NCBI GenBank assembly: GCA_017507905.1
Contig: JAFWAA010000061.1
Coordinates: 404-64,403 of the forward strand
Reading direction: 5' to 3'
DNA length: 64,000 bases
From: Clostridia bacterium
GTDB lineage: Bacteria; Bacillota; Clostridia; Oscillospirales; CAG-272
Below the pieces are notes generated by a model, which was not told the DNA's origin, made no database searches, and saw nothing but the letters and a program-made list of their open reading frames with translations. Each line of letters opens with the position of its first letter. Positions within the stretch are counted from its first letter, which is position 1. This document shows positions 51,942 through 64,000 of this stretch, in pieces. Made by a program: the position numbers and the translations under genes.

Positions 51942-51979
51942 AGAGGACTTCTCCAAAAGGAAGAAGCCCTCTTTTTTTC
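51942..51979 (+). terminator. rho-independent terminator of the methyltransferase gene
   Basis: agaggacttc pairs with gaagccctct (one mismatch), followed by a 7-nt T-run. Confidence 0.65.
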
Positions 51980-51980
51980 T

Positions 51981-52793
51981 TTATTCTGCGATCGAAAATA
52001 CCTTCTTGGCGTTCTCGGCAAGCATCCGTCGCATATCCTCCTCGGAAAAGCCGAGCGACAAAAGGGACGCAAGCTCCTCCCTGGGATGCCACATGGGGTA
52101 GTCCGTGCCGAACAGGACGCGATCCGTGCCAAAGCGCAGGATCAGCTCCCGCACGCGCTCGGGCGGCAAAAAGCCGAAGCAGGAGGAGGAATCCACGTAA
52201 AAATTCGGTGCCCCAGCGAGCATCCGCTCCGCGTCCTCCCAGACCGACCAGCCGCCAAGGTGCGCCCCCACGACGGTAAGCCCCTCAAAGATCTCGAGAA
52301 TGGGAAGCATCCGATTGGGATTGGAAAAATCGTAGCGGCGGTCGCCCGTGTGCATCAGAATGGGCAGTCCCTCCTCCTCGCAAAGCTCGTAGATGCGCAG
52401 GAAGCGGAAATCGTCGATCTTGAAGCGCTGAATGTCGGGGTGCAGCTTGACCCCGTGCAGACCGAGGCGCACGATCCTGCGGACGTCGCCCGTAAGGTCC
52501 TCGCTCTCGGGATGAAGCGTGCCAAGACCGGTCAGGCAACCCTTTCCCTGTGCAACCTCCTCGGCAATAAACTCGTTGATGCCCGTGACCTGCTTTGGTG
52601 TGGTGGCGACCGACTGGATCACGAAATGATCCACGCCGTGCGCAAGCCCCTCCTCCATCAGATCCTGCACCGTGCCGCGGCAGACCGAGTGCAGACCGTA
52701 AAAGGTATCCGTGCCCTCTACCGCGCGCGCCGCGATCTTTTCGGGGTAAACGTGGCAGTGCGCGTCAACGACCGCATAGCCTTGGCCGACCAT
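51981..52793 (-). CDS. amidohydrolase_2 (TIM-barrel metal-dependent hydrolase/decarboxylase) family protein
   Basis: 270 aa. VVDAHCHVYP (HxH), GVKLHP, ILMHTG, GTDYPMW. The ATG overlaps the upstream stop (TGATG). Confidence 0.8.
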   Translation of the reverse strand: MVGQGYAVVDAHCHVYPEKIAARAVEGTDTFYGLHSVCRGTVQDLMEEGLAHGVDHFVIQSVATTPKQVTGINEFIAEEVAQGKGCLTGLGTLHPESEDLTGDVRRIVRLGLHGVKLHPDIQRFKIDDFRFLRIYELCEEEGLPILMHTGDRRYDFSNPNRMLPILEIFEGLTVVGAHLGGWSVWEDAERMLAGAPNFYVDSSSCFGFLPPERVRELILRFGTDRVLFGTDYPMWHPREELASLLSLGFSEEDMRRMLAENAKKVFSIAE

Positions 52794-55327
52794 CAGGCAG
52801 TCACCACGCGGCTCGCCTTGTGCAGACCGAGCTTTTCGATGGCCTCCTCACGCATCTTGTACTTGAGGATCTTGCCTGCGGCATTCATCGGGAAGCCCTC
52901 GACGAAGTCCACGTACTTCGGCACCTTGTGGCGCGCCATGTGGTCGCCGACATACTTCTTCATCTCCTCGGCCGTCATGCTCTCGCCATCCTTGAGGACG
53001 ATGCAGGCCATGATCTCCTCGCCGTACTGCTCGTCGGGCACGCCGATGACCTGCACGTCGCGGACCTTGGGATGCGTGTAGATAAACTCCTCGATCTCCT
53101 TGGGATAGATGTTCTCGCCGCCGCGAATGATCATGTCTTTGAGGCGTCCCGTAATGCGGAAGTTTCCGTCCTTGGTGCGACAGGCAAGGTCACCCGTATG
53201 GAGCCAGCCCTCAGCATCAATGGCGGCCGCGGTGGCCTCGGGCATCTTGTAGTAGCCCTTCATCAGGTTGTAGCCGCGTGCCACGAATTCACCCGTGACC
53301 TCGTCGGGGCAATCCTCTCCCGTTTCGGGATTGACGATCTTGCACTCGATCTCGGGCAGGGGACGTCCGACCGTGCCCACGCGGACCTCGATGGGATCGT
53401 CCGTGGAGCTCATGGTGCAGCCCGGGGAGGCCTCGGTCTGGCCGTAAACGATGGTGATCTCCTTCATGTTCATCTTCTCGACCACGTCCTTCATCGTGGA
53501 GATGGGACAGGGGCTTCCCGCCATGATGCCCGTGCGCATATGCGCAAAGCTGGTCTTCTCAAAATCGGGATGCTCCAGGAGCGCGATAAACATGGTGGGC
53601 ACGCCGTGGAAGGCGGTGATGTGCTCGTTGTGAATGCAGGCAAGCGCGGGCTTGGGGGAGAAATACGGCAGGGGCAGAATGGTGCCTCCGTGCGTCATGG
53701 TCGCCGTCATGGCCAGCACCATGCCAAAGCAATGGAACATGGGCACCTGGATCATCATGCGGTCCGCGGTGGAGAGATCCATGCGGTCGCCGATGCATTT
53801 TCCGTTATTGACGATATTATAGTGCGTGAGCATAACGCCCTTGGGGAATCCCGTCGTGCCCGAGGTGTACTGCATATTGCAAACGTCGTCCTTGTTGACG
53901 GCGGCGGCCATGCGGTAGACCTCACGCAGAGGAACGCGTGCGGCTCTCTCGAGTGCCTCGTTCCAATCCATGCAGCCCCTCTGACGGAAGCCGACGGTGA
54001 TGACGTTGCGCAAAAAGGGCAAACGCTTGCTGTGCAGAGGAGAGCCCGTCTTGGTCTCAGCAAGCTCGGGGCAAAGCTCGGCAATGATCTTGCCGTAATG
54101 CGTATCCTTCGAGCCCTCGGTCAAGATCAAGGTATGCGTATCCGACTGCTTGAGCAGGTACTCGGCCTCGTGGATCTTGTAGGCCGTGTTGACCGTGACC
54201 AGCACCGCGCCAAGCTTTACCGTTGCCCAGAAGGCAATATACCACTGCGGCACGTTGGAGGCCCAGACCGCCACGTGCGATCCCGCCTTGACGCCAAGAG
54301 CGATCAGCGCGCGGGCAAATTCGTCCACGTCGTCGCGGAATTCGCTATACGTGCGCGTATAATCCAGCGTCGTATACTTGAAGGCGTACTGGTCGGGAAA
54401 TTCCTCGACCATGCGGTCAAGCACCTGCGAGAAGGTCGCGTCGATGAGCGCCTCCTTCTTCCAGACGTACTTGCCCGTGTGGGCCTTGTTATAGTAAAGC
54501 GCAGGCTCCTTGCGGGAGGTGTCGCTATACTGCTTCATGTAGTTGACGAACTGGGAGAAGATGATCTCCATGTCGTCCAGCTCCTCGCACCAGCGCGGAT
54601 CCCAGACCAGGGAGAGGAAGCCGTCGTAATTGACCGAGCGGAGCGCCAGCATCATGGACTTCAGGGGCAGCTCCCCTTCTCCGACCAGGCAATACTCGAG
54701 GCCGTCCTCGGTCATGCGCGCATCGCTGACGTGCACGTGACGGACGTAAGCGCCCAGATGCTTGATGACCTGCTCGGCGCTCTCGCCGCCTCCAAAGTAA
54801 GCGGCAGACAAATTCCAGAGTGCGCCCAGAAAGTCGCAGGCAAAGCGCTCGAGAAGCGTGCGCAGCGTCTCGGCACGGCAGAACAGACCAAAGGTCTCAA
54901 TCAGCAGAGTGATCCCCTTCTCCTCGGCCACCGGCAAAAGCGTTTCCAAGAGCCCTGCGATGCGCTCGATCGCCGCGGCGTTTTTCTCCGCACTGCCGGC
55001 GTCGCTCGCCTTGAGGCGGATAAAGGGAATGTGCAGATTGGAGGCGACCTCCATGCAGGAGAGGATCTCCTGCACGTCACGCTCTCCGTCCTGTGCCTTG
55101 CCAAGATCGCAAACGGTGTCCATGCAGACCACCGTCAGCTTCTTCTCGTACAGGCGCCGCAGAGTTGCCGCGCTGGCATAGCCGTGGAAGGCGCCGTCGC
55201 GGTCGGTGAACATCGCATTATAAATATTGTGCAGCTCGATGCCCTCAAATTTCAGATCCTCGGCAACGTCGCAAAACTCCTCAAAGCTGCGTCCGTGCCA
55301 GCCCTTGGTGGAAAAGGAAAGCTTCAT
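52793..55327 (-). CDS. fusion protein: xylose-isomerase-like TIM barrel plus AMP-forming acyl-CoA synthetase/ligase
   Basis: 844 aa. The first ~280 aa match the AP-endonuclease-2 / sugar-phosphate-isomerase fold (KFEGIELH, LLIETF, VRHVHVSD, YDGFLSLVWDP). The rest is an adenylate-forming enzyme (MQYTSGTTGFPKGV, WLHTGDLA, GRLKDMIIRGGENIYP, GKILK). GGAGG RBS. The ATG overlaps the upstream stop (ATGA). Confidence 0.85.
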   Translation of the reverse strand: MKLSFSTKGWHGRSFEEFCDVAEDLKFEGIELHNIYNAMFTDRDGAFHGYASAATLRRLYEKKLTVVCMDTVCDLGKAQDGERDVQEILSCMEVASNLHIPFIRLKASDAGSAEKNAAAIERIAGLLETLLPVAEEKGITLLIETFGLFCRAETLRTLLERFACDFLGALWNLSAAYFGGGESAEQVIKHLGAYVRHVHVSDARMTEDGLEYCLVGEGELPLKSMMLALRSVNYDGFLSLVWDPRWCEELDDMEIIFSQFVNYMKQYSDTSRKEPALYYNKAHTGKYVWKKEALIDATFSQVLDRMVEEFPDQYAFKYTTLDYTRTYSEFRDDVDEFARALIALGVKAGSHVAVWASNVPQWYIAFWATVKLGAVLVTVNTAYKIHEAEYLLKQSDTHTLILTEGSKDTHYGKIIAELCPELAETKTGSPLHSKRLPFLRNVITVGFRQRGCMDWNEALERAARVPLREVYRMAAAVNKDDVCNMQYTSGTTGFPKGVMLTHYNIVNNGKCIGDRMDLSTADRMMIQVPMFHCFGMVLAMTATMTHGGTILPLPYFSPKPALACIHNEHITAFHGVPTMFIALLEHPDFEKTSFAHMRTGIMAGSPCPISTMKDVVEKMNMKEITIVYGQTEASPGCTMSSTDDPIEVRVGTVGRPLPEIECKIVNPETGEDCPDEVTGEFVARGYNLMKGYYKMPEATAAAIDAEGWLHTGDLACRTKDGNFRITGRLKDMIIRGGENIYPKEIEEFIYTHPKVRDVQVIGVPDEQYGEEIMACIVLKDGESMTAEEMKKYVGDHMARHKVPKYVDFVEGFPMNAAGKILKYKMREEAIEKLGLHKASRVVTA

Positions 55328-56706
55328 GCCTGGACCTCCTCGTAAACGATCTTATTGATCGCGTTGATGTATGCACGGATGCTTGCACCGATGATGTCGG
55401 TGGAGATCCCGTTGCCCGAATAGAGCTTGCCGTCGGCGCGGAGCTTGACCAGAGCCGATCCCATGGCCTCCTTGCCCTCGGTGACCGCCTGGATCTGGAA
55501 ATCGTCCAGCTCGTAGCGGTGTCCGACGATCTGCTCGATGGCGCGGAAGGCGGCGTCGATCGGACCGTCACCGATGGAAATCCCCTGCATGGTCTCTCCG
55601 TTCTTCTCCATCGTGATCTGTGCGGTGGAGGAGATGACGTTGCCGTTGTTGACGACGTAAGCCTTGATCTGATAGGTCGCGGGGACCTGCAGAGCCACGC
55701 TCGCGATCACGGCCTCCAGCTCCTTGGAGCCGACCTGGCGGTTGCGGCTGACGCGGCAGAACTCCTCGTAGACCTTTGCGCGGTCCTCCTCGGAGAGATC
55801 GTAGCCAAGCTGTACGGCGGCCGCATCCACGGCCTCGCGCCCGTCGTTGGCGTCCAGACGGATCTCGGCCTGCTCGGCGGCAGGAGAGAGCACGAGCTTC
55901 TCGCTCTTTGCGCCGTCAATGATCCAACGGATCTGCTTGACGTTGCGGTGCAGCTCGGTCGCGCGGACGGCCGTGCAGAGCTCGTAGGTGTTTCCGCAAT
56001 TCTTGATCATATCCACGAAGGCCTCAAGCGAGACGGCCTCGCCCAAAACCGCCGTCTTGACGCCGTCAACGCCTGCACGGACGGCCAGAGCAGCCGATGC
56101 CGCGGCCATGCCGTTCTTATCGTTGCAGCGCACGTAAACGGGAACGGAGATGCGCTTGGCGATCTCCCCTGCAAAGGCGGCAAAATCGTCGGGCATCATC
56201 TCGGCGGCACTGTCGCAAAGGGTGACCGAGGTCGCGCCCGCGCCGATAGCGGCCTGCAAAGCGGCCTCAAGCACCTCGCGCTCGGCGCGCGTGGCGTCCA
56301 CGGCGCAAAGCTCCACGTCGGGGCAGGCCTGCTTTGCCTCGGCCACGCAGGCAGCGATCCACTCGATCATCTTGGGTGCCTTCTTGTGGCAGGCATACTC
56401 CATTCCCACGGGAGAGACGGGCAGCTCGATGCGGATACGGGGATGGGCGGCACCCGAAAGCGCCGCGGCCGCCAGGGCCACGCTTCCCGCTGCCATACCT
56501 GCGCCAACCGAAAGCACGCTTCCCTTAACGAAGGAGGAAACCGTGCGCACGAGCAGGGAGTCGGTCTTGGCATTGGTGATCTCGGGGAGCTCGATGGCGT
56601 CCACGTTCAGCTTCTCCAGCTGACGGGCGATCTCGATGCGCTCCTTGAAGCTGAGGGCGCCCTCAGCGCTCAAAAGCGTTGTGTCTGCAATTCTGATCTG
56701 TTTCAT
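55324..56706 (-). CDS. 2-isopropylmalate synthase-like protein with degenerate catalytic motifs and an intact LeuA regulatory domain
   Basis: ATG at 56706 follows AAAGGAGAGG. HMGL-like barrel in which DTTLRDGEQ is DTTLLSAEG and H-x-H-D-D-L-G is VRCNDKNG. C-terminal LeuA-dimer domain (GDGPIDAAFRAIEQI...GISTDIIGASIRAYINAINK). Confidence 0.75.
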   Translation of the reverse strand: MKQIRIADTTLLSAEGALSFKERIEIARQLEKLNVDAIELPEITNAKTDSLLVRTVSSFVKGSVLSVGAGMAAGSVALAAAALSGAAHPRIRIELPVSPVGMEYACHKKAPKMIEWIAACVAEAKQACPDVELCAVDATRAEREVLEAALQAAIGAGATSVTLCDSAAEMMPDDFAAFAGEIAKRISVPVYVRCNDKNGMAAASAALAVRAGVDGVKTAVLGEAVSLEAFVDMIKNCGNTYELCTAVRATELHRNVKQIRWIIDGAKSEKLVLSPAAEQAEIRLDANDGREAVDAAAVQLGYDLSEEDRAKVYEEFCRVSRNRQVGSKELEAVIASVALQVPATYQIKAYVVNNGNVISSTAQITMEKNGETMQGISIGDGPIDAAFRAIEQIVGHRYELDDFQIQAVTEGKEAMGSALVKLRADGKLYSGNGISTDIIGASIRAYINAINKIVYEEVQA

Positions 56707-56751
56707 GTTACCTCTCCTTTTTCTGTGTTCTCGTCGGAGACGGGGAATGCC

Positions 56752-57020
56752 GAAAATAAACAAGCCCCCGGGATCGGCCAATACCGATCCCGGGGACGAA
56801 AAAACACTTTCGCGGTACCACCCCGGTTGCTGCCATAGCAGCCACCTTTTTCCGAATTCCAACAAATTCTCTGCCATGATAACGGGGCAAGCCGTAGACG
56901 CTTACTGGACTTCAGCACCTCTGCTCCGGAATGAGACTTCCCTTCTCGCTCACGCCGACTCGCACCTACCGTCGGCTCTCTGAGGTGAGGAATGAAAAGC
57001 GGAATAATTCCTTCAACGCA
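56752..57020 (-). promoter_or_regulatory. T-box riboswitch leader, specifier CUC (Leu)
   Basis: Minus strand. Stem I (57020-56922) has a K-turn UGC-GUUGA...GGA-GCA, AG bulge AGAGAG, distal loop GGUAGGUGCGA, and specifier CUC-A at 56935-56932. F-box-like CCGUUA is present. T-box core GGGGUGGUACCGCG lies at 56824-56811. The terminator is a 12-bp stem (56766-56777 / 56784-56795) followed by a U-run. Confidence 0.85.
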
Positions 57021-57043
57021 TTTACATTTGAATGATGGAAATG

Positions 57044-57072
57044 ATTATAGCACGCTTTTCCCCTTTTGTCAA
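57044..57072 (-). promoter_or_regulatory. sigma-A type promoter of the Leu T-box operon
   Basis: On the minus strand: TTGACA (57072-57067), 17-bp spacer, TATAAT (57049-57044). Confidence 0.7.
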
Positions 57073-57134: not shown

Positions 57135-57674
57135 TCAGGCCTCGTAATCCGCGCCCAGCTGCATTGCCTTGAGGTTGACCTCAAGCATATCCGCGCGCTT
57201 GGCGGAAATGACCTTCCTCAGTGCGGCCTCGACCTTTTCCACGTCGAACTGTCCAAGCTCCTTGAGGATCTTGCCCAGAAGGATCATGTTGGCAAGCGTG
57301 GGCGTGCCGTTGTCGCTCGCCATCTGCGTGGCGGGGATCTTGACCAGCTTGACGTCTTTTCTCTCGATGTCTCTTGCGATCAGCGTGGAGTCGGCAAAGA
57401 TGATGCCGCCCGGCACCACCGCAGACTCAAAGCGATCGAGGGACGGAAGGTTCATGGCCACCAGAACGTCGGGATTGGAGACGATGGGAGAGCCCACGGG
57501 CGTGTCGCTGACGATCACGCTGCAGCTCGCCGTTCCGCCGCGCATCTCGGGACCGTAGGAAGGAAGCCAGCTGACCTGCTTATCCTCGGTCAATCCCTTA
57601 TACGCCATCAGCTTTCCGACGAACAGAATGCCCTGTCCGCCAAAGCCGGAGAACAAAAACTTGGTTGTACTCAT
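57135..57674 (-). CDS. 2-oxoacid:ferredoxin oxidoreductase, gamma subunit
   Basis: 179 aa. [22 protein letters not shown]... AGGAGG RBS. The start overlaps the beta-subunit stop. Confidence 0.88.
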
Positions 57675-58426
57675 TTCTCTGCCTCCTGACTTGCCGATCT
57701 GTCCTTATAGACACCCAAGGGGTAATACGGCAGCATTTTTTCGTCGATCCACTCCAGCGCCTGCTTGGGCGTCATGCCCCAGTTGGTGGGACAGGAGGAA
57801 ACGACCTCGACCAGAGAAAAGCCCTTGCCGTCGATCTGATTCTGGAAGGCCTTCTTGATGGCCTTCTTGGCGTTCTTGACGTTCTTGACGTTATTGACGG
57901 TCACACGCTCAAGATACTCGGGGCCCTCAAGCTCGGAGAGCAGTTCGCAAACGCGAATGGGGTATCCGCAATGCTTGACGTCGCGTCCGTAGGGCGAGGT
58001 CTGCGTGACCTGGCCGGGGAGCGAGGTGGGAGCCATCTGTCCGCCCGTCATGCCGTAGATCGCATTGTTGACGAAGATGACCGTGATGTTCTCGTTGCGC
58101 GCGGCGGCGTGCACCGTCTCGGCCATACCGATGGACGCGAGGTCACCGTCACCCTGATAGGTGAAGACCACGTTCTCGGGATTGGCGCGCTTAACGCCCG
58201 TAGCGACTGCGGGAGCGCGTCCGTGCGCCGCCTCGATCATGTCGCAGTTGAAGTAATCGTAAGCCATGACCGAGCAGCCGACCGGTGCGATACCGACCGT
58301 CTTGCCCTCAATGCCAAGCTCATCCATGACCTCGGCCACCAGGCGGTGAATGATGCCGTGGGTGCAGCCGGGGCAATAATGCAGAGGAAGATCTGCCAAT
58401 GCGTTAGGCTTCTGAAAAACGATCAT
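57671..58426 (-). CDS. 2-oxoacid:ferredoxin oxidoreductase, beta (TPP-binding) subunit
   Basis: 251 aa. [10 protein letters not shown] and GDGDLASIG (TPP motif). GGAGG RBS. Confidence 0.9.
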
Positions 58427-59496
58427 TCGTTCTTACCTCCATTCTTTGCAGCCTTAAGGATCGCGTCAAGCACCTGCTCGGGGGACGGGATCATTCCGCC
58501 CACGCGATTGCACAGGGTGACGGGAACGCGGCACTCGGTGGCCAAACGAACGTCCTCGATCATCTGTCCCATGGACAGCTCTACCGAAATGACCTCCTTG
58601 ACCTGCTCTGCCGCGCGGCGGAAGGGTGCCTTCGGGAAGGGCCAAAGCGTGATGGGACGGATCATACCGACCTTAATGCCCATCGCTCTTGCCTCGTCGA
58701 TGGCGTTCTTCGATACGCGAGCGGCAATACCGAAGGCGGCAATGCAGATCTCTGCATCCTCCATGCGGTATTCCTCGTACATCGTTTCCTTCTCCTCGAT
58801 CACGCGATAGCGATCGTAGCGCTCAAAGTTGGTCTCTTCGAGCTTTTCGGGAGAGAGGAACAGAGAGTTAATCACGTTATGCGGACGCTTCATGCCCGTT
58901 CCCGTCACGGCCCAAGGCTTCTCGGGCATGGGGGTCACGGGGAGATCGTCCAGGGCCACGGGCTCCATCATCTGTCCCATGGTTCCGTCGGCCAGGATCA
59001 TGGCCGTCATGCGATAGGTATCCGCCAGAGCAAAGCCCTTTACGGTCAGCTCTGCCATCTCCTGCACCGAGGAGGGGGCAAGAACGATCATGCGGAAGTC
59101 GCCGTGTCCGCCGCCCTTGGTGGCCTGGAAATAATCCGACTGGCTGGGCTGAATGCCGCCAAGTCCCGGGCCGCCGCGCTGGACGTTGACCACAAGCGAG
59201 GGCAGGTCCGCACCGGCAAGGTAGGAAAGTCCCTCACTCTTGAGCGAAATTCCGGGGCTGGAGGAGGAGGTCATCACGCGGCGTCCTGCCGCTGCAACGC
59301 CGTAGACCATGTTAATGGCCGCGATCTCACTCTCGGCCTGCAGAAACACGCCGCCGATCTTGGGCATTCTCTTGGCCATGTAGGCCGCGATCTCGGTCTG
59401 GGGAGTAATGGGATAGCCGAAGTAGTGGCGGCAGCCTGCACGAATGGCCGCTTCCGCGATGGCTTCGTTTCCCTTCATCAAAACCTTATCTGCCAT
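58423..59496 (-). CDS. 2-oxoacid:ferredoxin oxidoreductase, alpha subunit (VorB/KorA-like)
   Basis: [36 protein letters not shown]...[17 protein letters not shown] at 59496 follows AAGGTGA (a GTG at 59505 is also possible). Confidence 0.88.
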
Positions 59497-59505
59497 ATTC
59501 TTCAC

Positions 59506-59712
59506 TCACCTTTCCACTTCAATGATGCAGTCGGGGCACATGGTCGCGCAGAAGGCGCAGCCGATGCAGGCCTCCTCGTTGGCGGCCTCCACGGGGTGGT
59601 GTCCCTTTTGGTTGATCTTGTCGGGGGACAGACGAAGGACCTGCTTGGGGCAGGCGTCAACACAAAGCCCACAGCCCTTGCATTTGTCGGTCTTAAAGGT
59701 TAATTTTGCCAT
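59506..59712 (-). CDS. 2-oxoacid:ferredoxin oxidoreductase, delta subunit (2x[4Fe-4S] ferredoxin)
   Basis: 68 aa. CKGCGLCVDACP and CIGCAFCATMCP. Confidence 0.9.
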   Translation of the reverse strand: MAKLTFKTDKCKGCGLCVDACPKQVLRLSPDKINQKGHHPVEAANEEACIGCAFCATMCPDCIIEVER

Positions 59713-59738: not shown

Positions 59739-60398
59739 TTAACAAATTTTTTCTTGCAGGTCAAGGGGGAAAAGCCCCTCGATCTGCTCCTTGAGCGTCT
59801 CGTAAAGAGATGCGCGCACGGTCGTCATGCGTACGGGAAGCCCCGATGCGCGGCTGACCTCCTCGGCGTACCGGAGGGAGGCAAGCACGTCCTCGGGAGA
59901 GGTCATCTCACCGAGATTGGAATTGTTGACCAGGCCCGTAAAGCGCATTCCGCAAGCGGTCTCGATCTCCCCAAGCACCTCAAGCGTGGAGGGGACGTCC
60001 TGCGTCAGCGGGCGGTAGCAATTGATGACCGCCAGCATTTCGTAGTTCCCTTCCTCGCGCAGTGCGGGAGAAATGCGTCCCAGCGCCAGCGCGCCGCGAT
60101 CGTCGCCGCCAACGTCGATCACCGCAGAGCGGCTCTTATCGTCCGTGATGGCGTAAAGGTCGGCCGGGAGCGCGGGAATATCCAGATTGGTGTTGGCGTA
60201 TTCCGAGCAGATCAGGCGAATGCCTGCCGCCTCCAGCTCCTTGCGGCTGTCCTTGGTTCGGAAATAGGGATTGACGATGTCCAGGTCTGCGACCGTGACC
60301 TCCTCCCCGCTCCGCCGAAGATGAAGGGCATAATTGACGGCAATATTGGTCTTGCCGCTACCGTAATGCCCGCAAAAAAGCGTTACCCGTTTTTTCAT
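59739..60398 (-). CDS. P-loop NTPase (MinD/ParA/CooC-like) of unknown role
   Basis: About 219 aa. Walker A CGHYGSGKTN, DLDIVNPYF, VIDVGGDD. Sits between the acyl-CoA synthetase and the oxidoreductase genes. Confidence 0.7.
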   Translation of the reverse strand: MKKRVTLFCGHYGSGKTNIAVNYALHLRRSGEEVTVADLDIVNPYFRTKDSRKELEAAGIRLICSEYANTNLDIPALPADLYAITDDKSRSAVIDVGGDDRGALALGRISPALREEGNYEMLAVINCYRPLTQDVPSTLEVLGEIETACGMRFTGLVNNSNLGEMTSPEDVLASLRYAEEVSRASGLPVRMTTVRASLYETLKEQIEGLFPLDLQEKIC

Positions 60399-60410
60399 AC
60401 ACAAAAAGCC

Positions 60411-62702
60411 TCAAAGCATATTGCGGCGGATCTTGCCGCTGGTGGTCTTGGGAAGCTCGTCGCGGAAGACGACCAGACGCGGATACTTGTAGGGAGCGGT
60501 ATGCTCCTTGACGTAGCGCTGGATCTCCTTCTTGAGCTCCTCGGTGGGCTCGGTGCCGGGCGTCAGAACGATGCTCGCCTTGACGATCTGTCCGCGCACC
60601 TCGTCGGGAGCGGCCGAAACGCCGCACTCGAGAACGTAAGGAAGCTCCATGATGACGCTCTCGATCTCAAAGGGACCGATGCGGTAGCCCGAGGACTTGA
60701 TGACGTCGTCCACGCGGCCGACGTACCAGTAGAAGCCGTCCTCATCGCGCCACGCGGTGTCTCCCGTATGGTAGTAGCCGTCGTGCCAAGCCTCGGCGGT
60801 CTTCTCAGGATCGTTGTAGTAGCCCACGGAAAGTCCGCAGGGATAGCCGTTTTTGAGGCTGACGACGATCTCGCCCGTCTCACCCACGGCCACGGGATTG
60901 CCCTCGGCGTCCACCAGCTCCACGTCGTAGATCGGTGCGGGCTTGCCCATCGAGCCGATCTTATGCGGCGCACCCGTCATGTTTCCGATGATCATGGTGC
61001 TCTCGGATTGACCAAAGCCCTCGAGGATCTGCAATCCCGTTGCCTTCTCGAACTGACGGTAGACCTCGGGGTTGAGTGCCTCGCCCGCCGTGGTCATGTG
61101 CTGGACCGAGGAGAAATCGTACTTGGAAATATCCTGCTTGATCATCATGCGCAGCATCGTGGGAGGTGCGCAGAAGGTGGTGATGCCGTACTTGGCAAAC
61201 ATGGGAAGGATATCCGAGGCGTCGAAGCGGTCGAAATCGTAAACGAAGGTGGCCGCCTCGCAGAGCCACTGGCCGTAGAACTTGCCCCACATGGATTTTG
61301 CCCAGCCCGTATCCGAGATGGTAAAGTGCAGGCCGTCGGGATCCACGTTGTGCCAGTATTTTGCCGTATGGAAATGTCCAAGCGGATACTTGTAGTTATG
61401 TGCGGCAATCTTGGGATAGCCCGAGGTGCCCGACGTAAAGAACATCAGCATCAGATCGTCGCCGCCCGGTGCATTCTCCGGACGCTTGTAGTGCGTGCTG
61501 TAAAGCGTGTATTCCTCGTCAAAGCTTCTCCAGCCCTCGCGCTCGCCGCCAACCAGCATCTTGTGCTTGAGGGTGGGAGAGGAGGCGGCGGCAAGCTCCA
61601 CCTGCTCTGCCACGCCGTCGTCGGCGGTGCAGATGATGGCAGAGATGCCTGCGCTCTTGAAGCGATACTCAAAATCGTGCGCCTGGAGCTGGTTGGTGGC
61701 GGGAATGCCGATGGCACCCAGCTTGTTCAGTCCGAGCATGGCGGCCCAGAACTGGTAATGCCGCTTGAGCACCAGCATCACGCGGTCGCCCTTCTTGATG
61801 CCGAGCGACTTGAAGTAGTTGGCACACTGGGCAGACATCTTCTTCATGTCCTTGAAGGTGAAGCGACGCTCGGTCTTGTCCTTGGAGACGTGCAGCATGG
61901 CCAGACGGTCAGGCTCGCGCTCGGCGAGGGCGTCGATCAGATCAAAGGCGAAGTTGAAGTTGTCGATATTCTGGAATTGGATCGAGGTAGGCGTGCCGTT
62001 CTCGTCGACCTCGGTCTTGATAAAGCGGTGATAGATGCGCTCGCGATCGTCCCTCTTGGGTGCGCGCGCAGGCTCGCGAATGGCCTTGGTGGGGGTCAAT
62101 TCGGGAATGGGCTCGCCCGTGGGATTGAGAACGATGGCGTAGAATACGCAATCCTTTCCGCCAACGGCGATCATGCCGTGCGGCGTGTCACTGTCAAAGT
62201 AGATGCTGTCACCGGGGCCCAGCACCTCGCGATGCTCGCCCACCTGCACCATCAGCTGTCCCTCCACGACGAGGTCGCATTCCTGGCCTGCGTGCGTGGT
62301 CAGCTCAATGTCCCTTTGCTGTGCCTCGGGATCATAGGTGCTGCGCACGTACAGCGGCTCGGCAATACGGTTCTGGAAGGCGTAGGCCAGGTTGTAGTAG
62401 GTCATGCCGTGCGCCTGTGCGATCTTCTGTCCCGCACCCGCACGGGTGACGGTAAAGGATTTCAGCGTCGGGCTCTGACCCTCGATGATATCGGTAACGT
62501 TGACGTTGAGCGTCATGGCGCAGCGATAGATGAACGCAAAGTTCAGATCGCTCTCGCCCGACTCACAGCGAATGTATTCGGCAACGTCCACACCCGTCTT
62601 CTGCGCCATCTCCTCGGGGGAAAGCCCCTCGATCTCGCGCAGCTCGCGGATACGCGCCGCCATTTCCCGGATCTTAAAATCCAGTCCCTTCATTTGTTCC
62701 AT
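60411..62702 (-). CDS. fusion protein: XRE-type HTH plus cupin plus medium-chain-type AMP-forming acyl-CoA synthetase
   Basis: ATG at 62702 follows AAAGGGGA. HTH (IRELREIEGLSPEEMAQKTGVDVAEYIRCESGES), cupin (GQECDLVVEGQL...GDSIYFDSDTPHG), then the ACS (FFTSGTSGYPK, YHTGDTAWRDEDGFYWYVGRVDDVIKSSGYRIGPFEIES, SGKIRR). Confidence 0.85.
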   Translation of the reverse strand: MEQMKGLDFKIREMAARIRELREIEGLSPEEMAQKTGVDVAEYIRCESGESDLNFAFIYRCAMTLNVNVTDIIEGQSPTLKSFTVTRAGAGQKIAQAHGMTYYNLAYAFQNRIAEPLYVRSTYDPEAQQRDIELTTHAGQECDLVVEGQLMVQVGEHREVLGPGDSIYFDSDTPHGMIAVGGKDCVFYAIVLNPTGEPIPELTPTKAIREPARAPKRDDRERIYHRFIKTEVDENGTPTSIQFQNIDNFNFAFDLIDALAEREPDRLAMLHVSKDKTERRFTFKDMKKMSAQCANYFKSLGIKKGDRVMLVLKRHYQFWAAMLGLNKLGAIGIPATNQLQAHDFEYRFKSAGISAIICTADDGVAEQVELAAASSPTLKHKMLVGGEREGWRSFDEEYTLYSTHYKRPENAPGGDDLMLMFFTSGTSGYPKIAAHNYKYPLGHFHTAKYWHNVDPDGLHFTISDTGWAKSMWGKFYGQWLCEAATFVYDFDRFDASDILPMFAKYGITTFCAPPTMLRMMIKQDISKYDFSSVQHMTTAGEALNPEVYRQFEKATGLQILEGFGQSESTMIIGNMTGAPHKIGSMGKPAPIYDVELVDAEGNPVAVGETGEIVVSLKNGYPCGLSVGYYNDPEKTAEAWHDGYYHTGDTAWRDEDGFYWYVGRVDDVIKSSGYRIGPFEIESVIMELPYVLECGVSAAPDEVRGQIVKASIVLTPGTEPTEELKKEIQRYVKEHTAPYKYPRLVVFRDELPKTTSGKIRRNML
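61137..61223. repeat. 87-nt block identical to 63816-63902 (inside paralogous acyl-CoA synthetase genes)
   Basis: cttgatcatcatgcgcagcatcgtgggaggtgcgcagaaggtggtgatgccgtacttggcaaacatgggaaggatatccgaggcgtc occurs in both copies. The flanking sequence is clearly diverged. Confidence 0.9.
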
Positions 62703-62747: not shown

Positions 62748-63010
62748 AAATACAAAACGCACTCGCCCCAAAGTTCGTTGCTTTGAGACGAGTGCGAAAT
62801 CACCCGCGGTACCACTCAAATTACGGCTCTCGCCGTCACTCCGGATCTGACAATCCTTATGCCTTGACGCAGCAATCACGGGAAGGTTCTACGGCCGCGA
62901 GGCTTTCTTCCTTCCGACTCGGGAGCTACAAGCAAACACCCTCTCCTATGGCTCGCACCGTCCGCCATTTCTCTGTAAGGATCCGATCAATGCCCTTCTC
63001 CGTCACCGTC
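62748..63010 (-). promoter_or_regulatory. T-box riboswitch leader, specifier GUA (Val)
   Basis: Minus strand. Stem I (63010-62916) has a K-turn GAC-GGUGA...GA-GUC, AG bulge AGAGA, distal loop GGACGGUGCGA, and specifier GUA-G at 62929-62926. T-box core GAGUGGUACCGCGGG lies at 62817-62803. The terminator stem is cgcactcg.../...cgagtgcg (62758-62796), followed by UUUUGUAUUU. Confidence 0.82.
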
Positions 63011-63028
63011 TTTCCTATGAATGAAACT

Positions 63029-63089: not shown

Positions 63090-64000
63090 TCAAAGCTTGT
63101 TTCTCTGGATCTTTCCGCTGATGGTCTTGGGAAGCTCATCGCGGAAGACGACGATACGCGGATACTTGTAAGGCGCGGTATGTTCCTTGACGTACTGCTG
63201 GATCTCCTTCTTGAGTGCCTCGGTGGGCTCGGTTCCCTTGACCAGCACGACGCTGGCCTTGACGACCTGTCCGCGCACCTCGTCGGGGGCTGCGGAGACG
63301 CCGCACTCAAGGACGTAGGGCAGCTCCATGATGACGCTCTCGATCTCAAAGGGCCCAATGCGGTAGCCCGAGGACTTGATGACGTCATCCACGCGGCCAA
63401 CGTACCAGAAGAAGCCGTCCTCGTCACGCCACGCGGTGTCGCCCGTGTGGTAGAGGCCATCATGCCATACCTCGTCGGTCTTTTCCTGATTTTTGTAGTA
63501 TCCCGCAAACAGCCCACAGGGGATCTTCTTGTCGGTGTGAATGACGATCTCGCCGACCTCACCCACGGGAACGGGGTTGCCGTCGGGATCGACCAGATCC
63601 ACGTCGTAGAAGGGCACGGGACGGCCCATCGAGCCGAGCTTGTGTGCGCCTCCCATAAGGTTGGCGATGGTAAGGGTGGTCTCGGTCTGTCCGAAGCCCT
63701 CCATGGTCTGCAGGCCCGTGGCCTCCTCAAACTTGCGGTAGACCTCGGGGTTGAGTGCCTCGCCTGCCGTGGTCATGTGACGAATGGAGGAAAGATCGTA
63801 CTTGCTGATGTCCTCCTTGATCATCATGCGCAGCATCGTGGGAGGTGCGCAGAAGGTGGTGATGCCGTACTTGGCAAACATGGGAAGGATATCCGAGGCG
63901 TCAAAGCGATCAAAGTCATAGGTAAAGACCGCACCCTCGCAGAGCCACTGGCCGTAGAGCTTGCCCCAGAGGGCCTTGCCCCAGCCCGTATCCGAGATGG
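63090..64000 (-). CDS. medium-chain-type AMP-forming acyl-CoA synthetase, paralogue (N-terminus outside window)
   Basis: The frame is open to the window edge (...ISDTGWGKALWGKLYGQWLCEGAVFTYDFDRFDASDILPMFAKYG...SGKIQRNKL). It is closely related in protein and DNA sequence to the C-terminal part of 60411-62702. Confidence 0.88.
   Translation of the reverse strand, partial: ISDTGWGKALWGKLYGQWLCEGAVFTYDFDRFDASDILPMFAKYGITTFCAPPTMLRMMIKEDISKYDLSSIRHMTTAGEALNPEVYRKFEEATGLQTMEGFGQTETTLTIANLMGGAHKLGSMGRPVPFYDVDLVDPDGNPVPVGEVGEIVIHTDKKIPCGLFAGYYKNQEKTDEVWHDGLYHTGDTAWRDEDGFFWYVGRVDDVIKSSGYRIGPFEIESVIMELPYVLECGVSAAPDEVRGQVVKASVVLVKGTEPTEALKKEIQQYVKEHTAPYKYPRIVVFRDELPKTISGKIQRNKL
63816..63902. repeat. 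87-nt block identical to 61137-61223
   Basis: See the 61137-61223 repeat entry. Confidence 0.9.

Follow-up and report, generated by a model that had tools for sequence, protein, structure and literature searches.

A 64,000-nt stretch of a Clostridia bacterium contig (JAFWAA010000061.1; referred to here as the window) carries a gene for a relative of 2-isopropylmalate synthase (LeuA) that has lost its catalytic machinery and kept its regulatory domain. All positions given below are those of the window, all features lie on the (-) strand, and residue numbers refer to the 460-aa product of this LeuA-like gene (55324-56706), which begins with the ATG at 56706 and ends with a stop codon at 55324-55326. 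A longer open reading frame (ORF) from 56877, with 57 extra codons, was rejected as the LeuA-like gene. ATG 56706 was taken as the true start because a Shine-Dalgarno sequence (AAAGGAGAGG) lies just in front of it, all LeuA-like homologues begin with MKQI, and the extension crosses the RNA leader and its terminator. Over-long gene calls through the extension (56707-56877) are possible; the 507-aa homologue P0096 may be an example.

The sequence-only reading had described this gene as the first under a leucine T-box, and so it is. A T-box leader was found at 56789-57025, matching RF00230 over its full length at 120.4 bits (the Rfam gathering score is 93 bits), with the specifier CUC (Leu) at 56933-56935. 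Its intrinsic terminator, a 15-pair stem followed by a T-run (56764-56797), overlaps the 3' end of the T-box match. A putative promoter, recognized by consensus match only, was located at 57044-57072 (TG-extended TTGACA-17-TATAAT, 12/12 consensus matches). The LeuA-like gene is followed by a gene encoding an 844-aa fusion of a xylose-isomerase-like triosephosphate isomerase (TIM) barrel with an AMP-forming acyl-CoA ligase (52793-55327; AP_endonuc_2, 6e-22; AMP-binding, 5e-94; TIM-ACS below), and by a third operon gene encoding a 270-aa Amidohydro_2 protein (51981-52793; PF04909, 2.6e-35). The stop codon of the LeuA-like gene and the start of the fusion gene overlap as ATGA, and the start of the Amidohydro_2 gene overlaps the stop of the fusion gene. 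A terminator-like hairpin closes the three-gene operon (51942-51972).

The isopropylmalate/homocitrate synthase fold proposed earlier for the LeuA-like protein was recovered with sequence models and with structure prediction. Residues 1-245 (55972-56706) constitute a degenerate DRE-TIM barrel matched by the Pfam model HMGL-like (PF00682) at 3e-24. In the AlphaFold2 model (mean pLDDT 84) the barrel is predicted with pLDDT above 90, and Foldseek superposed it on the LeuA barrels 3ewb and 3rmj at 1.9 A root-mean-square deviation over about 270 residues. The best full-length structural matches of the model were methylthioalkylmalate (MAM) synthase and Mycobacterium tuberculosis LeuA. Residues 246-340 (55687-55971) form a linker and helical subdomain II, modeled as a low-confidence segment (268-279) followed by three helices; subdomain I is deleted here. 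The remainder (55327-55686) is the LeuA_dimer (PF08502) or regulatory (R) domain.

The active site of this enzyme class is well described (PMC11532901; PMC10464499). The metal ligands in the MAM synthase BjMAMS and in isopropylmalate synthase (IPMS) are Asp90, His288, and His290 (PMC11532901). Mutants of Arg89, Gln93, and the general-base His388 were mostly without detectable activity; some activity was left only in E227Q, H388N, T257S, and Y399F, and none was detectable in Q93A and Q93N (PMC11532901). Tyr399 stacks on the general base, with Y399S inactive and Y399F barely active (PMC11532901). We compared the LeuA-like protein with this set of residues in three independent alignments: phmmer against LeuA and MAM synthases of known structure, MAFFT against Escherichia coli LeuA, and L-INS-i over 109 sequences including 106 family representatives. 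All three agree that the R-D-G-E-Q motif of LeuA is represented by L12-S13-A-E-G, so that the substrate-binding Arg and the metal-binding Asp are lost; the Gln is aligned with G16 or with a gap, depending on the alignment. They likewise agree that the metal-binding H-x-H is replaced by R193-C-N195. The GIGERAGN motif has given way to a shortened loop. Each of these three losses had been read from the sequence alone, and none of the catalytic Arg, Asp, and His residues was restored by alignment to characterized LeuA structures.

Two further losses had not been noted before. The equivalent of Glu227 (the Glu of the "CED" motif) is V136, and a deletion of about 28 residues takes out subdomain I (HCS_D2, motif HSSGIHQDG), and with it the general-base His and the Tyr stacked on it. 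In total, none of the nine active-site residues is unchanged: Thr257 shows a conservative exchange to Ser, and the other eight have been replaced or deleted. The same condition extends through the family. Among the 106 representatives, H-x-H and subdomain I were found in none, the Asp in 8, the Arg in 34, both Arg and Asp in 3, the Gln in 5, and the Glu227 equivalent in 25. A local search for an H.H pattern around strand 7 of all 106 representatives found no H-x-H, and, together with the three alignments, it rules out a misalignment that masks catalytic residues. No match to HCS_D2 (PF22617) was found in the LeuA-like family by Pfam, and one was present in the true LeuA P0268. All 21 matching NCBIfam models (LeuA, CimA, NifV, and others) scored far below their cutoffs, the best being NF002086 with 256.8 bits against 532. 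Across the family the active-site positions are among the most variable of the protein; at the first His position E, Q, S, R, C, and A occur most often, and at the Asp position E, Q, N, S, and K. Judged by its sequence, the LeuA-like protein can have no isopropylmalate, citramalate, or homocitrate synthase activity. The loss of catalytic motifs seen in the sequence-only reading is confirmed and goes further than was claimed. Because the catalytic residues are gone and the modeled barrel nevertheless superposes on that of LeuA, the protein is predicted to be a LeuA fold without LeuA chemistry.

The R domain presents the opposite picture. The LeuA_dimer model matched at 1.5e-31 over positions 2-130 of 131, and the DSSP pattern of the AlphaFold2 model agrees with a double beta-beta-beta-alpha arrangement. 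Its preservation had been noted at the outset, and the comparison across the family bears it out. The motifs GDGPIDAAF (residues 379-387, 55546-55572) and GISTDIIGASIRAY (433-446, 55369-55410) are kept and nearly invariant in the family. GDGPIDAAF and G(I/L)STDIIGASIRAY open the two helices of the beta-beta-beta-alpha units. Nearly every position of GDGPIDAAF and GISTDIIG, both of which E. coli LeuA also has, is conserved at 90% or more. In the R domain 30 of 117 positions reach this level, 18 of which are identical in E. coli LeuA; in the barrel it is reached by 15 of 245. Family members are on average 58% identical to one another in the R domain and 33% in the barrel, and the R domain was the more similar of the two in every pair (5565/5565). 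In three pairs of true LeuAs the barrel was equal or higher (43-45%, vs 33-44% for the R domain). These comparisons indicate that conservation of the protein is highest in the R domain and that this domain is under strong purifying selection. We are highly confident that the protein is not a synthase, that it is functional, and that the R domain is its core.

With respect to the ligand, the R domain was also aligned to the regulatory domains of M. tuberculosis LeuA and LiCMS. The family-invariant L400, F403, and A414 align with pocket positions of M. tuberculosis LeuA that we take to be V551, Y554, and A565. The family motif GP[IV]DA is of the LeuA type, LiCMS having GGYDA, and the R domain together with subdomain II matched NF002086 (LeuA) at 3e-76 and CimA models at 1e-7 to 1e-10. 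In leucine-bound M. tuberculosis IPMS, leucine occupies a hydrophobic pocket with its carboxylate between two helix N-termini (PMC11057210). It has also been shown that the isolated PF08502 domain of CimA is an autonomous amino-acid (Ile) sensor (PMC13381585).

The LeuA-like protein belongs to a broad family. A word-indexed search recovered more than 120 clusters of 457-461 aa (and one of 507 aa) at about 65% identity; in an exhaustive search of 50%-identity representatives, at least 106 full-length members (453-497 aa), the lowest at 31% identity, ranked ahead of the first true LeuAs. At least 570 loci were confirmed in species-representative genomes, almost all of them metagenome-assembled genomes of Acutalibacteraceae, Oscillospiraceae, or Ruminococcus from ruminant and other guts. 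A pseudogene or a one-off degeneration is ruled out by the intact ORF, the breadth of the family, and the highly conserved domain. The family goes by "hypothetical protein" at NCBI and, once, by "2-isopropylmalate synthase" at JGI. It has no dedicated Pfam or NCBIfam model, and a search of the accessible literature found no prior description of the family or of the T-box/ligase arrangement. The protein has the HMGL-like fold, a full-length PF08502 domain, and the GxGPxDA and GxSTD motifs, and its gene has a T-box with Leu specifier and terminator; it lacks the metal ligands, the Arg and Gln, subdomain I, and the Glu227 equivalent of the Claisen-condensing DRE-TIM enzymes, and falls short of the NCBIfam equivalog cutoffs. 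By these features the LeuA_dimer domain family is the only one to which it truly belongs.

The link of the LeuA-like gene to the fusion gene is very strong. TIM-ACS lies directly 3' of it in 82 of 83 related loci, the exception being at a contig end. The gap between the two genes is -4 to +6 nt in 72 of 81 loci, and an overlapping TIM-ACS orthologue (46% identical) still lies directly 3' of a family member of 30% identity. The Shine-Dalgarno sequence of the ligase gene (GAGGAGG) is located within the codons of the conserved C-terminal YEE of the LeuA-like protein (55324-55345), so that the conservation of YEE may be partly a nucleotide-level constraint. The Amidohydro_2 gene is next in 60 of the 63 loci with room for it and appears to be more dispensable than the LeuA-like/ligase pair; the three loci without an Amidohydro_2 match (L030, L040, and L041) were picked by eye from the locus table.

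In the fusion protein the TIM barrel occupies residues about 1-285 and the ligase about 290-844. The barrel (54473-55327) keeps only part of the metal-site pattern (E...WNxSAAY...HVHxxD). The Glu of "IET" and HVHxxD are kept, and WN.SAAY, conserved in 70 orthologues, stands in place of the usual D..H; this barrel too may be catalytically altered. Its closest solved structures, Art22 (8z1i) and MJ1311, gave no function, and a literature search found no description of Art22. The Amidohydro_2 protein retains an HxH...D signature, as read from its sequence, and looks catalytically intact; its closest solved structure (3irs) is uncharacterized.

A leucine link is maintained across the family. A T-box motif was found 5' of the LeuA-like gene in 65 of 78 related loci, and the specifier was CUC in all 31 that were parsed and CUG in three more read by eye. 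In L002, which has no T-box, the LeuA-like gene follows IlvE by 125 bp in a longer operon.

The context upstream of the operon in the window or its relatives, not considered in the sequence-only reading, comprises 2-ketoisovalerate:ferredoxin oxidoreductase (VOR), the aminotransferase IlvE, and further ligases under Ile and Val T-boxes. In the window, the neighboring operon encodes VOR with its ferredoxin (57135-59712): a gamma subunit (57135-57674), a beta subunit (57671-58426), an alpha subunit (58423-59505) identified as VorB (NF005507, 543 bits vs a cutoff of 399), and a 2x[4Fe-4S] ferredoxin (59506-59712). A 221-aa CbiA/ParA-like P-loop protein is encoded between the ferredoxin and a ligase gene (59739-60404). 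It keeps this position in most loci and has no NCBIfam match; it may serve VOR as an Fe-S or maturation factor. The ligase in question (60411-62699, 762 aa) has a helix-turn-helix (HTH)-Cupin-AMP-binding architecture, and a Val T-box 5' of this HTH-cupin ligase/VOR operon was found at 62781-63015, with the specifier GUA at 62927-62929. At 72.9 bits (E 5e-15) it scores below the gathering score and is therefore missed by a default Rfam scan; the orthologous leader in L004 scored 95.7 bits and also has GUA. The 3' part of a second cupin-type ligase gene, cut by the window end, lies at 63090-64000. It is the orthologue of L004 279-2546 (89% identity), which is preceded by an Ile T-box with the specifier AUC (the T-boxes of L004 are at 1-218 and 2629-2874). 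For both cupin-fused ligases MbcS was the best NCBIfam model (432 bits for the HTH-containing protein and 426 bits for the other), below the equivalog cutoff of 850. The XRE-type HTH and Cupin_2 fused N-terminally to an MbcS-like ligase are an unusual architecture; the paralogue has the cupin and no clear HTH. The cupin could be an Ile or Val counterpart of the proposed pseudo-LeuA sensor.

VOR was found within 4 kb upstream of the triad (LeuA-like gene, TIM-ACS, and amidohydrolase) in 29 of the 52 loci with enough sequence. The VOR operon of most relatives also contains an aminotransferase that scores above the NCBIfam cutoffs for IlvE. A tblastn search with E. coli LeuA, LeuB, LeuC, and LeuD over the window and about 1.2 Mb of related flanks recovered only pseudo-LeuA itself. 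By its gene content, the neighborhood appears to encode a route that turns branched-chain acids into branched-chain amino acids. The formation of leucine by carboxylation of isovalerate is classical in ruminococci and rumen contents (Allison, 1962, 1966, as cited in PMC7356843), and the carboxylation step has been ascribed only hypothetically to EC 1.2.7.7 (PMC7709123). MbcS of Staphylococcus aureus activates 2-methylbutyrate and isobutyrate, the counterparts of Ile and Val, and isovalerate only very poorly (PMC10026030), so that the leucine branch requires another ligase. The simplest reading of the context is that three amino-acid-specific ligase modules feed a shared VOR and IlvE, and that the ligase under the Leu T-box, which belongs to a PRK12583-like subfamily, is specific for isovalerate.

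Based on these observations, we propose that pseudo-LeuA is a HisZ-like, leucine-sensing regulatory subunit of an isovalerate-activating ligase. The full model is, in our estimation, possible and close to probable. Pseudo-LeuA would dimerize via its R domain, as LeuA does, and leucine would bind between the N-termini of the GDGPIDA and GISTDI helices. The protein would act in trans on the TIM-barrel/acyl-CoA-ligase fusion as an end-product sensor. The ligase would convert isovalerate to isovaleryl-CoA, VOR would carboxylate this reductively to 2-ketoisocaproate, and IlvE would transaminate the product to leucine. Control would then be two-tiered, with the Leu T-box switching transcription on in the presence of uncharged tRNA-Leu and pseudo-LeuA stopping the ligase when leucine is replete. 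Control at two levels, by leader RNA and by end-product allostery, is known for canonical leuA. The dead barrel and subdomain II would pass a leucine-induced change to the ligase, comparable to that in LeuA, where the accessory and regulatory domains become rigid against the partner chain's barrel once leucine is bound (PMC9860122). The sequence-only reading had suggested a non-catalytic, possibly leucine-sensing subunit that may regulate the downstream enzyme. Of this, the lack of catalysis, the R domain as the core, and the tie to the downstream gene are supported; that leucine is the ligand, that the two proteins form a complex, that regulation takes place and in this direction, and that isovalerate is the substrate, we infer.

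A wider hypothesis is that, besides such a trans-acting HisZ-like leucine sensor gating the ligase, the whole supercluster supplies the long-missing genes and regulation behind a route known for 60 years, by which ruminococci and other gut Oscillospirales carboxylate branched-chain acids to make Ile, Val, and Leu. The supercluster would then consist of a cupin-MbcS ligase under an Ile T-box; the HTH-cupin-MbcS ligase, VOR, and IlvE under a Val T-box; and pseudo-LeuA, TIM-ACS, and the amidohydrolase under the Leu T-box. A chemical step peculiar to the leucine branch may be contributed by the fused TIM barrel and the amidohydrolase. We put this wider hypothesis forward tentatively.

Several points weigh against the model of a leucine sensor on an isovalerate ligase. 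Beyond sequence, its support is circumstantial. Homology by itself does not prove the identity of the ligand, because PF08502 binds Leu in LeuA and Ile in CimA. Isovalerate is a guess as substrate: the best NCBIfam match of the ligase is PRK12583, a generic "fatty acid CoA ligase" (684 bits vs a cutoff of 832). The fused TIM barrel and the Amidohydro_2 protein are not explained by simple isovalerate activation, and the module may do more. The 15 barrel positions conserved at 90% or above include the polar catalytic-face residues D8, S98, D137, R140, and D165, so that some ligand binding or new chemistry may take place in the barrel. The triad is away from VOR in 23 of 52 loci, and IlvE is not in the window. 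The search that found no canonical leuABCD covered the window and about 1.2 Mb of flanks, and the carriers may have these genes elsewhere.

Among the other explanations, the one that survives best is that the protein is a structural or assembly subunit which senses no ligand, the dead LeuA dimer scaffolding the ligase or tethering it to VOR for acyl-CoA channeling, with the R domain as dimer or partner interface. The gene pair is indeed invariant and tightly coupled, LeuA_dimer is also a dimerization domain, and DRE-TIM barrels form channeling complexes with CoA-dependent partners, DmpG/DmpF-type structures (1nvm, 4jn6, and 4lrs) being among the structural matches of the model. However, the most conserved residues are small ones (G, P, D, S, and T) at the helix N-termini of the LeuA ligand site (PMC11057210) rather than a broad hydrophobic surface, and the frequent separation of the triad from VOR fits poorly with tethering. 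We regard a pure scaffold as unlikely.

Alternatively, pseudo-LeuA could sense an effector other than leucine (2-ketoisocaproate, isoleucine, valine, or an acyl-CoA), either in the R domain or in a remnant barrel pocket. In support of this, Ile is the ligand of the PF08502 domain in CimA (PMC13381585), a crystal structure exists of M. tuberculosis LeuA with ketoisocaproate (3hps, among the structural matches), and the five polar residues listed above are conserved at the old substrate site. The conserved T-box, on the other hand, is specific for Leu, and the GP[IV]DA motif and the far better fit of the R domain and subdomain II to LeuA than to CimA models also speak for leucine, which makes another effector quite unlikely.

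A third alternative is that the protein has become a new enzyme, with a metal-independent barrel activity that acts together with the fused TIM barrel and the Amidohydro_2 protein in a leucine-related conversion and is subject to R-domain feedback in cis. Three TIM-barrel-type proteins and a ligase are co-transcribed and conserved together, some catalytic-face residues are invariant, and the amidohydrolase retains its HxH...D signature. In contrast, the LeuA active-site positions are the most variable in the family, which is the opposite of the pattern of an active site, and in every pair the barrel evolves much faster than the R domain. The LeuA-like gene and the ligase gene, moreover, are never separated in the 83-locus set, and 3 of 63 loci do without the amidohydrolase. 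A neo-functionalized enzyme therefore seems improbable.

That the gene encodes an ordinary divergent 2-isopropylmalate or citramalate synthase, as the JGI name of one member and the LeuA-like fold and domain order would have it, or is a decaying pseudogene, can practically be dismissed, since none of the nine essential residues is retained (PMC11532901; Thr257 being Ser), the best LeuA equivalog match is 257 bits against 532, no leuBCD genes were found nearby (window and about 1.2 Mb of flanks), and at least 570 species have kept an intact ORF that includes a highly conserved domain.

Returning to the proposed leucine sensor, the closest relative in structure is LeuA itself (barrels 3rmj and 3ewb; full-length 1sr9 and 3fig), built in the same order from a DRE-TIM barrel, subdomain II, and a pair of beta-beta-beta-alpha LeuA_dimer units. 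E. coli LeuA has the R-domain core in common with the family, agreeing at 18 of its 30 invariant positions, and leucine-responsive leader control is often found in LeuA, as here. Unlike LeuA, the LeuA-like protein is without the metal ligands, the invariant Arg, the Glu227 equivalent, and the GIGERAGN loop; it is about 50 residues shorter, with subdomain I deleted; and the conservation gradient of its family is inverted. Its gene adjoins the TIM-barrel/acyl-CoA-ligase fusion, whereas leuBCD were not found in the flanks searched.

The nearest functional parallel is HisZ, a catalytically dead paralogue of HisRS that serves as the histidine-sensing regulatory subunit of the short-form ATP-phosphoribosyltransferase HisG. 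As proposed here, pseudo-LeuA would likewise be a paralogue of an enzyme for the same amino acid which has lost catalysis, kept the amino-acid-binding part, and acts in trans as sensor of an entry enzyme. Loss of catalytic residues under purifying selection and an obligate genomic partner (82 of 83 loci) were both observed; the partnership was scored from the side of the LeuA-like gene. The fold and ancestry are different, and the partner is an adenylate-forming ligase, not a phosphoribosyltransferase. The HisZ-HisG complex and its inhibition by histidine are experimentally established, whereas the complex and leucine binding proposed here are predictions. A separate polypeptide or domain that senses a branched-chain amino acid and feeds back to a partner is also found in the IlvN/IlvH ACT subunits of acetohydroxyacid synthase and in a biosensor built on the isolated CimA R domain (PMC13381585). 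IlvN and IlvH differ from pseudo-LeuA in their ACT fold, and pseudo-LeuA carries a full inactive barrel. We know of no description of a natural stand-alone, trans-acting PF08502 regulator.

As for the pathway, the activities that the isovalerate carboxylation route (Allison, 1962, 1966) requires, namely acyl-CoA ligases, VOR with ferredoxin, and IlvE, all have genes in the neighborhood. Ruminant and other guts are the source of the hosts, which belong to Ruminococcus, Acutalibacteraceae, and Oscillospiraceae, and two of the ligases are cupin-fused and resemble S. aureus MbcS (PMC10026030). That route was defined by labeling, not by genes. The leucine-branch ligase differs from the textbook route in belonging to another subfamily of acyl-CoA synthetases, in being fused to a TIM barrel, and in its association with pseudo-LeuA and an amidohydrolase, none of which the route predicts.

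If the model is correct, a LeuA R domain would act in trans on an unrelated enzyme, and an enzyme would have been turned into a dedicated allosteric subunit, in parallel to HisZ. To our knowledge this would be the first natural case of a trans-acting LeuA regulatory domain. It would also provide a handle, at the level of genes and of regulation, on the isovalerate carboxylation pathway, which underlies the branched-chain volatile fatty acid requirement of fiber-degrading rumen bacteria and is of interest in ruminant nutrition. We infer, overall, a LeuA-derived pseudoenzyme regulatory subunit with good comparative support and a testable link to a long-known, genetically undefined pathway. The family is an annotation trap, as counting its members as LeuA would lead to an isopropylmalate pathway being wrongly inferred. 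If leucine binding is real, a naturally autonomous leucine-binding module could serve in biosensors.

P0268 and P0261 were considered as evolutionary intermediates and rejected; the former has HCS_D2 and GIGERAGN, the latter lies in an ilv-leu operon beside a second full-length LeuA/CimA, and both belong to other lineages. P0250 (L086 1030-4026), the most divergent member examined (31% identity), is found without the ligase beside a tRNA gene and mobile-element genes of the RhuM/HTH type, and this copy may be displaced or orphaned. In an unrelated lineage (L088 6001-9115), a 516-aa LeuA paralogue is encoded beside a full 528-aa LeuA/CimA in an ilv-leu operon. The paralogue has intact RDG and HxH motifs, a near-intact loop (GLGDRAGN), and no Pfam HCS_D2 match, and the L088 pair is a different kind of LeuA duplication.

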